Assembly: GCA_963731265.1 (NCBI GenBank)
Contig: CAVSUE010000001.1
Location: forward strand, 1,344,001-1,408,000
Source: an uncultured Verrucomicrobiae bacterium
GTDB taxonomy: Bacteria; Chlamydiota; Chlamydiia; Chlamydiales; Rhabdochlamydiaceae
Reading direction: 5' to 3'
Length of the DNA stretch: 64,000 nucleotides
The notes beneath the pieces are model-generated. The model did no database searches. It was not told the DNA's origin and worked only from the letters and a program-made list of their open reading frames with translations. Below, one piece after another: positions 44,991 to 49,718 of this stretch. The translations under genes and the position numbers were made by a program. The stretch's first letter is position 1, and every line of letters begins with the position of its first letter.

Positions 44991-47900
44991 ATGCTAACTG
45001 GCGTTTATAACCGAATGCTTTTCTGCTTATGGGCAATCCTATTTGCATTCCCCAGTGTTTCCGATGCTATTTCCGTAAAATCATGGTCATATGACAAATA
45101 CGGTAATTTGCAAGAAATTACAGATCCGAGAGGGTTTGTCACTCAATATCACTATGATCTGCTTAATCGTCTTGAAAAAATTGATTATCCAGACCGCAAA
45201 CAAGTTAAGTATTCCTATGATCTAAGCGGTATTCGGACAAAAATGGAAGATCATCGAGGTGCGACCCTATTTGAACCGGATGAGTTTGGAAAAATTAATA
45301 AAGTCACTTTTCCTGATGGCCAGTCTGTTTCTTATCGTTACGACTCTGAAGGCAACCTTATAAAACTTGTTTATCCTGACGGTACTGATGTCGAATACAC
45401 CTACGATCTTTCCAATCGGCTGTACACTGTTAAAGACTATTCCGGCGTTACAAAATTTGAATATGATGAATTCAGCAATGCTCCAAGAAAAAAAACTCTT
45501 TCCAATGGGATAACAACTGAATATCAATACCATAAAACGCGAAAAATATCGCATGTTATTCATAGGGGAGCAGATGGTAATTTAATAGAGGAATTCCGAT
45601 ATTCGTATGATGAAAATGGCGTGCGCAAAACAATTGAAAAAATCTCTCCAAAAGGAGACTCTCATGTCGCTTACACCTACGATAAACTCAATAGAGTCAT
45701 AAAGGCAGAATATTCGGACGGGTTTTTTGAAGCGTTTTCGTATGATGGAGCTGGCAATAGACGCAGTAAAACGACCCCTAAAGGGACAATCACCTACGAA
45801 TATGATGAAGAAAATCGTCTGAGAAAAGCGGGCGACGCGGCTTATACATACGATCCTGCAGGCAATTTAATCAAAAAATCTTCTCCAGGACATGAATCTA
45901 TATATCGATATGATTTCGATAACCGGCTGATTTTTTATTCTGATGAATCCAATCAAGTGAGCTTCGAATACGATGGAGATGGCAACCGAACTTCTAAAAC
46001 AGTAAATGGCGTACGTACAGATTATTTCAATGATCTCGTAGCTCCAGTTAGCCAGGTTCTCCTCAAACGTATACAGGGCAATTGGTGGAATGGAGAAAAA
46101 ACGATCCGTTATGTCTATGGGGGGTCGCGGATCAGCCAATCCACTGAAGGCAGAACACAATTTTACCTCTATGATAGCATTGGAAGAAATGTCTCAATGC
46201 TGGTCAACTCGTCAGGCAAAATATTAAATAGCTATGAATACGATGCGTTTGGCGGTCAACTTTCGGAAGACCTGGATCTCCCCAATGATTTTAGTTATTG
46301 CGGAGAACAGTTCGATGAGGAAACAGGATTCATTTTCTTAAGAAACCGCTATTATGATCCTGAAGTCGGGCGTTTTATTTCTAAAGATCCAACTCCAGGC
46401 AGATTGAATCGTCCTTCAACCTTGAATCCTTATTGTTATGTCGAGAACAATCCAATCAATTTTATCGATCCATGGGGTTTTAACTCAATAGAACCTGAAC
46501 AATGGGAAATGGTTATTGCCCACATGAATGGTCTGCCGGGATGGTTTGGAGGGCAAGGAAAAGGGGGACATATTTTTATGGAATTTCCCGCACGCAAGGG
46601 GGGCGATGATGCTTACTTTGGAAATTATCCAGAATATCCCAGCTTTGATGAAGCTGCACACGTAAATCCAAAAACAGTTTCTGTGGCGGCTTATTGTAAC
46701 TCCCAGAAGGTGGATGCGGCTATTCAGGTAATGAAAGGGATAAAGTGGACAATTACAAATAATTGCGTTCACACCTTATTAGAGGGTATGAAAATAATGG
46801 AGTTTCCTCATGTTGAGAAAATTCATTTGGGTTTGATTCCAATCCCCATGGAGTTTCAATCGCAAATGCTACAACTCCATGAACGTGATCCAGTCCGTCC
46901 TCTTGCTTATCCATTCGAAGAGATGCAAAGTCCGTCAAAGACTTCCCCTTTAGGGCTAAATTTTTCTTCCGGCATGGATTTTGGAGGAGTCAGTTTTTCC
47001 AAGACAGCAGAACTCGAATTGAGCATCGCCGATATTACGGGAGCTGCTTTTGATCCTGTCACAGGACAAATCATCCTCTTTGGCTCGCAAAACCGGTATT
47101 TGCCCCCTATAGAACTTGATGATTTAGCAGTAGCTGTTAAGTCGGTATACGGGATTGGAGCTGGCTCACAAGATCCGGGGATATCCATTGATCGTTCTCC
47201 GGATTTACATGGGCAAATGAAGGTTCGCTATGACGGGGTCACGGCTAACACGGCGTTTGGACAGACTATGTTTGAAGCTGATTATCTTCTCAAAGGTCTT
47301 GCTATCGGCAAAAATCAAGCAACAGGACAACCGTTTAATCTGAATGTCCCTGGCTATTCAAGCGTCTTTAGCAGACTCGCAGCCCACCGATGGACTGGAA
47401 CCCAACTAGATCTCCTTCGTTTTTGGTTCATACCCGATCAGATTACTCTTGTGGAAACCGAGGATCATAAGGGAATGGTTTTCAGCGATGTTCGTATGAA
47501 AGTCATGACGGAGGCCTTCATTAACGGTTTGCCCACGGACCATCCCGCCTGCCTTGAATTTGCGAACCACTTTACGAGGTACTATGATGATTTTGCAAAG
47601 CAGTTGCCCATCTTGGAAAAGCTAAAAAATTTAGGAAAAATCACTGCAATCATTAAATGGCTTAGAGAAAACAATATCTCTTTCGATATTTCTTTCTTTG
47701 CGAGTTATCAACCCAAAAGAGTAGAAACCCCACATTACGTCGCCCCCATAGAGAGCACTTATCAATGGACATCCAAACAAATCGAAAAACATCATGTGCC
47801 AGGACATAAACACAAGAAAAAAGTAGAAGTTCCTTACACTCACACCATACCGATTTCTGGAGGCATTATTTATAAGCTCAATAATCAGAATTTTGCTACT

Positions 47901-49718
47901 TACACGGATCCAGCAGCTAATGAATTTGTCGATTCAGCGTTAAGATCCAGACCTTCGGAAAATGATTTTAGCTGGTCTTTTAATTCTCCAACTCATCCAG
48001 AGCCCCTAATTGCTATTGCACAAGATGTCTATCGGACAAAAAAACCAGGAAATGTGAAAAAGTCTTATACCGATATGAGTTTTTCTGTGCCTGGCAGGCA
48101 TAAAGTATCTCTTCAACGCTTCTATAATTCTTTTTCCGAGAAAGAGTCCCCTTTTGGCCATGGATGGAGAATGATTCCTTATGAATTGGAACTGTCTACT
48201 GAGAAGATTCGAGCAACTGCAGAAAATGGACGAGAATGTATCAGCTATCCGATGATCCTCGTCAGAACTCCGGAGGGAGAAGATTTTTATCAGCTTTGCA
48301 TGCTAAACGATGACAACCTTCCAATCTTAAAAAGCCCCATCAATTCCAATTTTCTGCAGGATAATCTCAACAACACTTTTACTTTGTTCATTCCTTATGT
48401 CGGCCAGATAGATTTTGATAGTCAGGGGAGGCTCTTGAGAATATTGGATCCAGAAGGTTTTGCCACTGAGTACAAGTTCGATGATCATCGCCTGATTGCC
48501 ATTCGCCACCAAAACGGGTCGGCAATACTACTGGAATATGAAGACAATCGCGTGATTAAAGCATCAGGGCCTGGTAATAGCATTGTGCAATATGCCTACC
48601 ATGGCAACGGGCAACTAGCTGCTGCTGGAGATGGTAATAAAATTCACATGCATTATTCCTACGATCCAAACAAGCGTCTTAATAAAATTACTGATCATTT
48701 GGAGAATGTACTTTTTGAAGCTGACTACGACGATTACAATCGCGCTATTGCAGTTAGAGAAGGATCCATGACATATCAATCCAACTTCTCTTTGGAAAAG
48801 AAGACGATGAAAACGACCGATAGCCTGGGGAGGGAGTCCATTTTGCAATTTGATGATAAAAATCGGCTGATCCATCAAAAAGATTTCCTTGGACGCGCTT
48901 GGGAATTTGGTTATGAGCAAGATAACATTAATTTCCCCACCAAAGTAGTAGATCCTAAAGGAGGAGTTACAAAATACCGCTATAATTGTCTCGGCAAACT
49001 AGCCTCTCTAAAAAACCCTGCAGGAGCTGAGTGGAAATTTGTTTATGATTTAAATGGCAATTTAATCGGACAAAAAGAACCCAATGGCCGGATGATTGTG
49101 AACATGTATGACTCGAAAAATCGGCCTTTTCAAACCTTTCTCAAAGCCTCTATGGAGTTTGATGAGAATGACTGCTTTTCCTCTGGTTACAAAAAGTTAC
49201 ATGCTGATGGGCGATATGCGGTATATTTCGGTTTTGATGCAGAAACAGGACAGTTGACAAGTCGTAGAAATGCCAAGGGAGCGGAATTTTCCTTTACTTA
49301 CCACAAAAACGGTCAACTAAAGGAGATAATCTACCCCACCGGATACATGCTGGAGCGAGAAGTAGCGGAAAAAGGCAATATCAAAGAAATCTCCGATAGG
49401 TTCGGTATTCAAAAAGGCTATGATTATGATGAGGCTGATCGAATTAAGGCCATTCGAACTGCTGCAGGTACAACTCATTTTACTTATGACAATGGAGGGA
49501 ATTTGAAACTGGTCTTAGACCCCAGGGGCTATACAACTTCTTATCGCTATGACAACGAGCATAACCTAAAAGAGGTAACCGATGCTGAGGGCGAGATCAC
49601 CTCTTATGAATACAACTCCCTTAATCAGCTGAGTCATCTGGTACTACCCAATGGTTCTTCCAAAACTGTTAAATACGATTCTTTGGGTCTTCTCTATCAG
49701 GAAATTTGGGGGCAATGA
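44991..49718 (+). CDS. Rhs/YD-repeat protein with signal peptide and circularly permuted domain order
   Basis: YD repeats from aa ~30; Rhs core RYYDPEVGRFISKDP...NPYCYVENNPINFIDPWG ending at aa 496; DUF6531-like DMSFSVPG...LQRFYNS...PFGHGW at aa ~1028-1059; YD repeats again to the C-terminus. Confidence 0.92.
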   Translation: MLTGVYNRMLFCLWAILFAFPSVSDAISVKSWSYDKYGNLQEITDPRGFVTQYHYDLLNRLEKIDYPDRKQVKYSYDLSGIRTKMEDHRGATLFEPDEFGKINKVTFPDGQSVSYRYDSEGNLIKLVYPDGTDVEYTYDLSNRLYTVKDYSGVTKFEYDEFSNAPRKKTLSNGITTEYQYHKTRKISHVIHRGADGNLIEEFRYSYDENGVRKTIEKISPKGDSHVAYTYDKLNRVIKAEYSDGFFEAFSYDGAGNRRSKTTPKGTITYEYDEENRLRKAGDAAYTYDPAGNLIKKSSPGHESIYRYDFDNRLIFYSDESNQVSFEYDGDGNRTSKTVNGVRTDYFNDLVAPVSQVLLKRIQGNWWNGEKTIRYVYGGSRISQSTEGRTQFYLYDSIGRNVSMLVNSSGKILNSYEYDAFGGQLSEDLDLPNDFSYCGEQFDEETGFIFLRNRYYDPEVGRFISKDPTPGRLNRPSTLNPYCYVENNPINFIDPWGFNSIEPEQWEMVIAHMNGLPGWFGGQGKGGHIFMEFPARKGGDDAYFGNYPEYPSFDEAAHVNPKTVSVAAYCNSQKVDAAIQVMKGIKWTITNNCVHTLLEGMKIMEFPHVEKIHLGLIPIPMEFQSQMLQLHERDPVRPLAYPFEEMQSPSKTSPLGLNFSSGMDFGGVSFSKTAELELSIADITGAAFDPVTGQIILFGSQNRYLPPIELDDLAVAVKSVYGIGAGSQDPGISIDRSPDLHGQMKVRYDGVTANTAFGQTMFEADYLLKGLAIGKNQATGQPFNLNVPGYSSVFSRLAAHRWTGTQLDLLRFWFIPDQITLVETEDHKGMVFSDVRMKVMTEAFINGLPTDHPACLEFANHFTRYYDDFAKQLPILEKLKNLGKITAIIKWLRENNISFDISFFASYQPKRVETPHYVAPIESTYQWTSKQIEKHHVPGHKHKKKVEVPYTHTIPISGGIIYKLNNQNFATYTDPAANEFVDSALRSRPSENDFSWSFNSPTHPEPLIAIAQDVYRTKKPGNVKKSYTDMSFSVPGRHKVSLQRFYNSFSEKESPFGHGWRMIPYELELSTEKIRATAENGRECISYPMILVRTPEGEDFYQLCMLNDDNLPILKSPINSNFLQDNLNNTFTLFIPYVGQIDFDSQGRLLRILDPEGFATEYKFDDHRLIAIRHQNGSAILLEYEDNRVIKASGPGNSIVQYAYHGNGQLAAAGDGNKIHMHYSYDPNKRLNKITDHLENVLFEADYDDYNRAIAVREGSMTYQSNFSLEKKTMKTTDSLGRESILQFDDKNRLIHQKDFLGRAWEFGYEQDNINFPTKVVDPKGGVTKYRYNCLGKLASLKNPAGAEWKFVYDLNGNLIGQKEPNGRMIVNMYDSKNRPFQTFLKASMEFDENDCFSSGYKKLHADGRYAVYFGFDAETGQLTSRRNAKGAEFSFTYHKNGQLKEIIYPTGYMLEREVAEKGNIKEISDRFGIQKGYDYDEADRIKAIRTAAGTTHFTYDNGGNLKLVLDPRGYTTSYRYDNEHNLKEVTDAEGEITSYEYNSLNQLSHLVLPNGSSKTVKYDSLGLLYQEIWGQ

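Follow-up and report, generated by a model that had tools for sequence, protein, structure and literature searches.

We analyzed a 64,000-nucleotide window of a genome assembled for an uncultured member of the Rhabdochlamydiaceae (contig CAVSUE010000001.1, positions 1,344,001 to 1,408,000 of the forward strand) and found that it carries an Rhs protein gene in which the two halves of the YD-repeat shell stand in swapped order on a single chain. Rhs and Tc cocoons are treated as built to a fixed plan, with the plug first and the toxin last on the chain and a single cut that fully releases the toxin, and this plan is used for the automatic finding of toxin cassettes and of their immunity genes. 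The gene described here (positions 44991..49718 of the window, + strand) is an uninterrupted open reading frame (ORF) of 1575 amino acids (aa) that begins with the core-side half of the shell and ends with the plug-side half, and this layout is conserved and widespread. We propose that the gene probably encodes a Sec-exported Rhs toxin container, whose cocoon would be made from two blocks that follow each other in swapped order along one chain.

The order of the elements within the ORF is signal peptide, YD half A, Rhs core with DPWG, a 135-aa tip, a linker, a DUF1598-like domain, a DUF6531 plug and YD half B, as follows (AF2, AlphaFold2; pLDDT, predicted local distance difference test):

44991..45068, + strand: signal peptide, aa 1-26 (by eye; homologues with comparable N-termini)
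45069..46238, + strand: YD half A, aa 27-416, core-side turns (RHS_repeat and YD_repeat matches, NF041261 profile, phmmer against the PDB, predicted contact with half B)
46239..46478, + strand: Rhs-associated core, aa 417-496, with an aspartyl-autoprotease motif and a DPWG end (TIGR03696; invariant residues)
46479..46883, + strand: tip or cargo, aa 497-631, candidate papain-like NlpC/P60-type domain (AF2 model, VIA-align, invariant H527 and C592)
46884..47021, + strand: disordered variable linker, aa 632-677 (low pLDDT; alignments without consensus)
47022..48032, + strand: DUF1598-like domain, aa 678-1014 (confident AF2 fold; profile search)
48033..48245, + strand: plug or cork, aa 1015-1085, with DUF6531 (Pfam; alignment to RhsA 7q97)
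48246..49715, + strand: YD half B, aa 1086-1575, plug-side turns and end of the protein (AF2 superposition; predicted contact with half A)

Multiple YD repeats, as found in Rhs proteins, are present at both ends: RHS_repeat (PF05593, Pfam) matches in 9 stretches (E 7.1e-82), the YD repeats of TIGR01643 match with E 2.1e-56 (NCBIfam), and the best stretch of YD_repeat_2x lies at aa 1499-1540 (NCBIfam), with repeats extending to the C-terminus. Between the repeat blocks, the Rhs_assc_core profile TIGR03696 covers aa 417-496 (E 2e-22, NCBIfam), its final residues being D493-P494-W495-G496, and DUF6531 (PF20148) covers aa 1026-1082 (E 2.8e-8, 34.4 bits against a cut-off of 24.1, Pfam). The plug begins near aa 1015 and 1079 residues lie C-terminal to DPWG, and the protein departs from the usual Rhs linear order of plug, YD repeats, core and terminal tip. 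The signal peptide (aa 1-26), with a basic start, a hydrophobic core and an SDA/I boundary, was read by eye and by comparison with the N-termini of homologues. The original prediction for this DNA, made from its letters alone, had named a signal peptide, YD repeats, a core with DPWG, a non-repeat cargo of about 530 aa, a DUF6531-like motif and further YD repeats in this order, had counted about 1080 aa after DPWG with YD repeats to the end, and had expected DUF6531 at aa ~1020-1060. Every element that it listed was located where it had placed it, and the order was borne out by the TIGR03696, RHS_repeat and DUF6531 profiles, with only the DUF1598 match remaining below threshold.

To place the gene among its relatives, we retrieved 43 proteins with the non-repeat middle (aa 497-1025), some of which come from sources named as Chlamydiales or Simkaniaceae metagenome-assembled genomes (MAGs). 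The 26 of them that are 1517-1576 aa long have the layout in common; they are 31-75% identical to the middle of the query and 34-76% identical to the query in an alignment of 27 sequences (alignment A1, the query plus these 26 full-length homologues). Invariant in all 27 sequences are the core residues D456, P457, G460, R461, F462, D466, D493, P494 and G496 and the plug-motif residues K1018, G1020, N1021, Y1045, S1047, F1048, G1056 and W1059, and given these residues the arrangement is not due to chance. Among 301 Chlamydiota genomes sampled, the middle region is present in 20, spread over at least six families. At 11 of 12 loci, from 10 other Chlamydiota genomes, we found a single ORF of 1522-1567 aa that runs from half A through the core, the DUF1598-like domain and the plug to half B. 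Homologues with the same order, for which the original prediction had called, are therefore found as single ORFs at the Chlamydiota loci, in the alignment and among the best 150 representatives described below.

In addition, the gene is intact outside the assembly from which the window was taken. Independent contigs from three public sequencing runs, belonging to three studies, each span positions 44000-49900 in one piece and differ from the window by 41-43 substitutions, with a sole indel at 49828, outside the ORF; these 6.2-kb Logan contigs reach only ~76 and ~285 nt past 44000-49900. Misassembly is excluded, and the concern that reads or homologues might reveal two separate genes or a misassembled tandem is contradicted by the unbroken contigs. 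It is thus extremely improbable that the locus is an artefact or a dead gene, that is, two ordinary rhs genes in tandem that were misassembled or are decaying. Such an origin would fit the same-genome paralogue, which is in three pieces with breaks near aa 510 and aa 1501, the twelfth Chlamydiota locus, which is interrupted by one TAG, and the repeats that flank the window locus; against it, the ORF is intact in the assembly and in the contigs of three independent studies, the motifs are conserved in 26 full-length homologues, and the order is common to 56 of the best 150 representatives. Among the sequencing runs listed, none provided RNA data containing the locus.

The paralogue (L033; G000:C1:879089-883818, - strand) is 79% identical to the window protein in half A and the core, 48% in the tip, 64% in the DUF1598-like domain and 54% in half B. 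The first of its breaks falls just past DPWG, and a protein from another genome (P0007) likewise begins just before DPLG. These breaks may reflect decay, sequencing error or a tolerated split at a natural cleavage site.

The same parts also occur in other arrangements. A profile of the DUF1598-like domain plus the start of the plug matched 3832 representative proteins at E<=1e-3, of which 860 also passed E<=1e-30, and we sorted the best 150 representatives into architecture classes by BLAST with segments of the window protein. The permuted and fused form accounted for 56 of these 150; 35 were TcB-like (domain, plug and YD repeats, without core), 20 had the canonical order (N-terminal domain, plug, YD repeats, core), 11 had the core at the start, 5 had upstream YD repeats without a core match, 3 were permuted without a downstream YD match, and 20 had the domain alone. 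A canonical-order example is P0153, whose core (aa 1324-1402) is followed by a 135-aa tip. A split form is found in a Pedobacter MAG, in which a 635-aa gene for half A, core and tip is followed by two small ORFs and then by a gene for the DUF1598-like domain, plug, half B and further sequence. Two Omnitrophota MAGs have a half A gene followed by a gene for core, tip, DUF1598-like domain, plug, half B and further sequence, and a deltaproteobacterial symbiont has the fused permuted form within a 3120-aa ORF. The seam at which half B ends and half A begins seems to occupy one position throughout the split, fused and canonical forms. Given this shared seam position, the window protein is a true circular permutation of a canonical Sec-type Rhs protein or, equivalently, a C-then-B fusion of a two-part cocoon. 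The likeness to a C-then-B fusion, suggested earlier from the letters, is mirrored by the natural unfused genes of the Pedobacter MAG, and the idea that a former tip and a former N-terminal domain were joined in the middle agrees with the existence of canonical-order relatives.

Outside the Chlamydiota, several relatives carry further modules. A HYDIN/ASH/DUF1573-type immunoglobulin (Ig) domain directly follows half B in L036, L037, L038, P0029, P0036, P0038 and P0039, a BACON-like Ig domain stands ahead of half A in L037 and P0036, and long tails of cadherin-like, He_PIG, Big and dockerin modules are found in non-chlamydial relatives. The chlamydial proteins are without the HYDIN/ASH-type and BACON-like Ig domains and without these tail modules.

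We then asked how the two repeat blocks relate to solved cocoons. The AF2 model of aa 497-1575 (mean pLDDT 80.5) superposes on the Salmonella bongori Rhs structure 8qjb_A (Z 24.0, root-mean-square deviation (rmsd) 4.2, 475 residues aligned, chain 360..857) and on RhsA 7q97_A (Z 22.7, rmsd 5.8, 499 residues aligned, chain 302..875), and aa 1025-1071 align to the plug region of RhsA 7q97 (E 0.0018). Half B as modelled thus matches the plug-side, or first, half of solved Rhs cocoons. The N-terminal block corresponds to the other side: in phmmer searches of the PDB, aa 184-496 align to residues 757-1064 of the 1065 of 8qjd_A, at the core-side end, and the core aligns to the TccC core and to the cores of Rhs structures, while in the RHS_core profile NF041261 aa 3-237 align to positions 533-759 of 1261. 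Together the halves provide 562 + 470 = 1032 shell residues. In RhsA, a three-turn cocoon encloses a toxin of ~15 kDa (PMC8765631).

When aa 32-496 and aa 1041-1575 were given to ESMFold2 as two chains, with our own alignment supplied, the predicted complex scored 0.72, 0.73 and 0.73 in interaction prediction score from aligned errors (ipSAE), against 0.00 for the best of three controls. The mark used for this score was reached by 116 of 157 solved complexes and by 2 of 215 mismatched pairs, a calibration that is roughly valid with a supplied alignment. The runs gave 165-169 contacts each with at least 95% agreement between them, and a partner pLDDT of 78-79. Along the predicted interface, contacts recur with a spacing of ~21 residues on both chains (aa 32-275 against aa 1300-1575), and the interface takes in both termini of the protein (aa 32-38 and 1567-1575). 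Consecutive turns of one spiral, joined along an unbroken seam, would produce such a 21-residue spacing together with the terminal contacts, and the halves are predicted to be joined as neighbouring turns of one shell. The closed cocoon is in this way a prediction, in which the halves bind in silico and half B superposes on solved half-cocoons. The original prediction had proposed that two halves assemble one YD shell and had named independent folding of the two repeat blocks as the finding that would speak against it; the models instead place the blocks as mutually bound, adjacent turns.

Between the two halves lies the cargo region. The AF2 model of aa 497-1025 (pLDDT 76.6) consists of a tip domain, a disordered linker and a large domain. 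The tip most closely resembles TseH (6v98_A, Z 9.8, rmsd 4.0, 126 residues aligned, VIA-align), followed by MARTX RID, YiiX, a DUF862 deSUMOylase, a Bacillus cysteine peptidase (3kw0) and PLAAT4, with Z values of 7.1-6.1 for RID, YiiX, DUF862 and 3kw0 (VIA-align). We take these structural matches to be papain-like enzymes of the NlpC/P60 kind, in which the His precedes the Cys. Tip residues H527 and C592 are invariant in the 27 sequences, and GH..NC-type motifs are kept in all chlamydial tips as judged by eye; the tip is a candidate for a papain-like, NlpC/P60-type fold with the same His-then-Cys order. A Foldseek comparison of the middle model with the PDB returned 0 matches at E<=0.001, and a Pfam search with 9 tips at E<=10 did not find a relevant family. 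Chlamydial tips diverge to 20-50% identity, with the shells being more alike, and a variable module thus stands directly after a conserved processing motif, as in polymorphic toxins. In P0029, P0036 and P0039 the segment after DPxG is unrelated, and this replacement of the tip is the behaviour of a polymorphic toxin cassette.

The linker has a pLDDT of ~24-53 in both AF2 models and no consensus in the alignments. For the large domain, DUF1598 (PF07643) matches aa 741-777 with E 0.0043 and 17.7 bits against a required 25, below the gathering threshold. The homologue P0041 passes the DUF1598 cut-off in the homologous region with 29.6 bits, and the large domain would be related to DUF1598 through P0041, by transitivity only. 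Searched as part of the 529-residue model against 48,161 PDB representatives, it had no look-alike (best Z 3.6), and ESM Atlas gave no usable match for it. In canonical-order and TcB-like relatives the DUF1598-like domain is N-terminal, directly before the plug.

We propose the following mechanism. The protein would be exported by Sec, and half B, headed by the DUF6531 plug, would make the plug-side turns of the cocoon. Half A would take the spiral on from the C-terminus of half B, and the Rhs core would close the opposite pole. The aspartyl protease of the core would then cut after DPWG496, leaving aa 27-496 and aa 497-1575 as separate pieces held together non-covalently. The ~15-kDa tip (aa 497-631), possibly a papain-like His527/Cys592 hydrolase or acyltransferase, would be the cargo inside the cocoon, and its C-terminus would remain tethered, through the 46-residue disordered linker, to the DUF1598-like domain directly before the plug. 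The linker would exit via the plug opening to an external DUF1598-like domain, leaving the toxin 'pre-threaded' toward that opening. Release outward might proceed through a secretin-type system or vesicles, a route that we infer from a genome without a type VI secretion system (T6SS): three secretins are encoded, and neither a PAAR motif nor the T6SS sheath protein VipB/TssC was found in the 96%-complete genome. Of the earlier statement that PAAR and VgrG genes are absent, the PAAR part holds for the genome, and a VgrG model was not searched. It is conceivable, if somewhat unlikely, that after self-cleavage the external DUF1598-like handle recognises a target or membrane and pulls the toxin out C-terminus first. 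In that case neither a T6SS spike nor a TcA channel would be needed, and with the upstream gene up151 (described below) as immunity, the family would form an autonomous, Sec-dependent contact or secreted toxin system in obligate intracellular Chlamydiota and several free-living phyla.

Several points weigh against a self-cleaving container of this kind. The score of the predicted complex possibly reflects the model's memory of solved Rhs and TcB-TcC cocoons, and it indicates likeness, not binding; moreover, the two-chain job excluded the first 26 plug residues (aa 1015-1040) and the whole middle. The tip's Z of 9.8 is moderately above the background of 7-8 quoted for the tool, and the tip is without a Pfam family. 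Cleavage after DPWG is something we infer from conserved residues only. Finally, in RhsA the start of the cork and the toxin are both inside the cocoon (PMC8765631); the 58-kDa middle of the window protein cannot fit a three-turn shell, which makes the path of the tether the weak point. The chain would need to exit and come back in near the plug, or the tip lies outside, as in teneurins.

Two other readings of the same protein have to be considered here. Closure could take place between chains, with half A of one molecule binding half B of another to give dimers arranged head to tail, or chains in which the 530-residue middle connects the cocoons. The two-chain prediction is blind to this difference, as it cannot separate intra-chain from inter-chain pairing, and the natural two-gene forms show that the halves can meet in trans. 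For RhsP, dimerisation on cleavage has reportedly been described, and a PDB title names monomeric pre- and post-autoproteolysis forms of that protein. Core and plug lie at opposite poles of the cocoon (PMC8765631), and the long middle could equally bridge two shells. However, the 181 aa of tip and linker suffice to span a single cocoon on the inside, and intramolecular pairing is entropically favoured; we regard closure between chains as rather improbable. A second reading is a teneurin-like surface or secreted scaffold: the shell would be closed but empty, tip and DUF1598-like domain would both lie outside it, and the protein would serve as an adhesin or enzyme display platform. Teneurins keep their toxin-like domain outside the shell (PMC8765631), AF2 folds the tip confidently as a globular domain, and the Ig-like, cadherin-like and dockerin modules of the non-chlamydial relatives are typical of surface proteins. 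Yet D466, D493 and DPxG are invariant in our alignment, and teneurins show no such cleavage; behind DPxG, relatives carry unrelated modules instead, as is the case with the toxin cassettes of Rhs proteins; and the size of the tip suits a three-turn cocoon. We consider such a scaffold quite improbable, and the toxin container remains our preferred reading.

In the neighbourhood of the gene, the following features were found:

43545..43810, no strand: left copy of a 266-nt direct repeat (tyrS 5' end plus upstream sequence), 99% identical to 49971-50236
44045..44485, + strand: small ORF of 146 aa, apparently with a signal peptide; it opens the block (ORF call)
44529..44984, + strand: up151, 151 aa, with a signal peptide or N-terminal anchor, conserved upstream gene
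49971..50236, no strand: right copy of the 266-nt direct repeat, inside a chimeric ORF at 49879..50319, - strand (sequence comparison)

No small gene directly follows the tip, and up151 sits upstream instead, with its stop 7 nt ahead of the Rhs start. The original prediction had stated that there is no downstream immunity gene; this is literally correct, but it left aside the conserved small gene immediately upstream, which may stand in for the missing downstream one. A homologue of up151 lies directly upstream of the Rhs gene at all 12 loci in other Chlamydiota (10 by BLAST; L031 and L032 by profile and by eye), often in 2 or 3 copies per locus. Among the 301 Chlamydiota genomes, the up151 family (alignment A3) is present in 27, namely in 18 of the 20 Rhs-positive genomes and in 9 without the Rhs middle. 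Pfam searches with 17 up151 members at E<=1 gave scattered chance matches only, and the best ESM Atlas score for up151 was 0.88, with no common family. We also considered whether up151 is homologous to the HYDIN/ASH-type Ig domain found behind half B in non-chlamydial relatives, and rejected the idea (hhalign probability 0.1).

We tentatively suggest that up151, a conserved partner of the permuted Rhs gene, could be a periplasmic immunity protein or inhibitor for the tip, or else a partner specific to the tip in some other way; to the immunity role we give somewhat less than even weight. Within a trio formed by the window protein, its paralogue and L021, the shells are 74-79%, 63-68% and 53-58% identical; for the two members with a common tip type (tips 45-48% identical) the up151 proteins are 53-54% identical, and for the pairs with different tips they are 31-33% identical. 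Furthermore, the paralogue has additional up151-like genes next to it, and these resemble the proteins that accompany foreign tip types (65% and 52-55% identity). Other comparisons count against this role. Over 55 locus pairs, up151 identity correlates with shell identity (r 0.72-0.77) and with tip identity (r 0.68), and L028 and L029 have tips that are 52% identical and up151 proteins that are only 27% identical. When up151 identity was regressed on the identities of shell and tip for these 55 pairs, the two effects were not separated. As up151 tracks the shell at least as closely as the tip, the case for immunity comes down to one natural swap and the orphan copies. The nine genomes with up151-family genes but without the permuted Rhs middle (G045, G162, G202, G130, G153, G054, G076, G141 and G131) often hold tandem arrays of 2-4 up151 genes, and one of them, G045, is a 99%-complete single-contig genome. 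These Rhs-less arrays resemble orphan immunity arrays.

By its domains, the window protein belongs with the Rhs cocoon proteins, yet it breaks their defining linear order and is like TcB and TcC joined in reverse. With the T6SS-type Rhs effectors that we compared (RhsA of Pseudomonas protegens, 7q97; Salmonella bongori Rhs, 8qjb; Tse5, RhsP and Tse15) it shares a YD beta-spiral, a DUF6531-type cork, a core that carries DPxG and two conserved Asp, a shell of about 1000 residues and a ~15-kDa tip directly after DPxG. Unlike them, it has the core-side half first and the plug-side half last, with the tip internal and tethered to the next domain, and it has a Sec signal peptide in place of a PAAR, prePAAR or VgrG adaptor. 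The tethered C-terminus of the tip would set it apart from every described Rhs protein. As in the Tc BC subunits (TcdB2-TccC3, 4o9x; YenB-YenC2, 4igl), one spiral is predicted to be continued over two polypeptide blocks, and its two-gene relatives mirror TcB (N-terminal domain, plug, part of the shell) and TcC (part of the shell, core, toxin). The order of genes or domains is C-then-B, however, not B-then-C, and both the size of the shell (~1032 residues) and its closest structural matches agree with a three-turn and not a four-turn cocoon. At E<=0.1, Pfam showed no SpvB/VRP1 or beta-propeller match in the window protein, and a search of the genome for TcA_TcB_BD gave no match, with the control of that search also silent. 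The canonical Sec-type protein P0153 has the same parts (signal peptide, DUF1598-like domain, plug, YD shell, core, ~135-aa tip) in a different order, of which the window protein is the circular permutation. The tip, finally, is like TseH (6v98), YiiX, PPPDE/DUF862 deSUMOylase, LRAT/PLAAT and MARTX RID in its predicted fold and in its conserved His and Cys, but differs from TseH-type families in having no sequence-family match; its substrate could be peptidoglycan, lipid or protein.

Searches of full-text literature, whose coverage leaves out subscription journals, found neither a description of a permuted Rhs or Tc cocoon nor a mention of DUF1598. PMC3482391 has a single permutation term alongside Rhs terms, and 'permut' does not occur in the first 300,000 of its 357,715 characters. 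In the passages found in PMC2811131, chlamydial RHS family proteins appear only as an entry in a list. The family, which exists in fused, split and canonical forms, shows that the shell can be cut in mid-spiral and joined again at its former termini, and it supplies natural split points for cocoon engineering. Internal toxin cassettes are possible, and they would be missed by annotation pipelines that consider only the C-terminus. The layout poses the question of how a tethered cargo exits from its shell. It suggests, in addition, that bacteria without a T6SS, intracellular chlamydiae included, use a Sec-dependent Rhs route, for which the target might be a competitor bacterium or the host.

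The three-gene Rhs block is bracketed by the two 266-nt repeats, which are 99% identical. In the chimeric ORF (49879..50319, - strand), the right repeat is joined to a 97-nt copy (92% identical) of the 3' end of the ORF at 51469..51825, the two 97-nt copies lying at 49880-49976 and 51470-51566. The block looks like a recent insertion or a duplication-mediated island, as the Rhs middle was found in 0 of 9 congeners of the source genome within the 301 Chlamydiota genomes. A scan of positions 43700-50000 for promoters and terminators gave counts not above those of shuffled sequences. For the first gene of the block (44045..44485), Pfam gave a sub-threshold match only, and among 13 loci (L021-L033) a homologue (44% identity, BLAST) was found beside the same-genome paralogue only.

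The source genome also encodes two Rhs proteins in canonical order, one of 1388 aa with its core at aa 1024-1096 (~1784074-1788240 of G000:C1; L049 2075..6241) and one of 1695 aa with its core at aa 1445-1522 (~1799618-1804705 of G000:C1; L050 1119..6206). These two genes are followed by small ORFs of 191 and 137 aa, respectively, without a known family. Among the more distant relatives, an Anaerolineales MAG encodes a protein of 1124 aa (L042 4660..8034, + strand) that combines a DUF1598-like domain and one RHS repeat match with a C-terminal CHAT protease.

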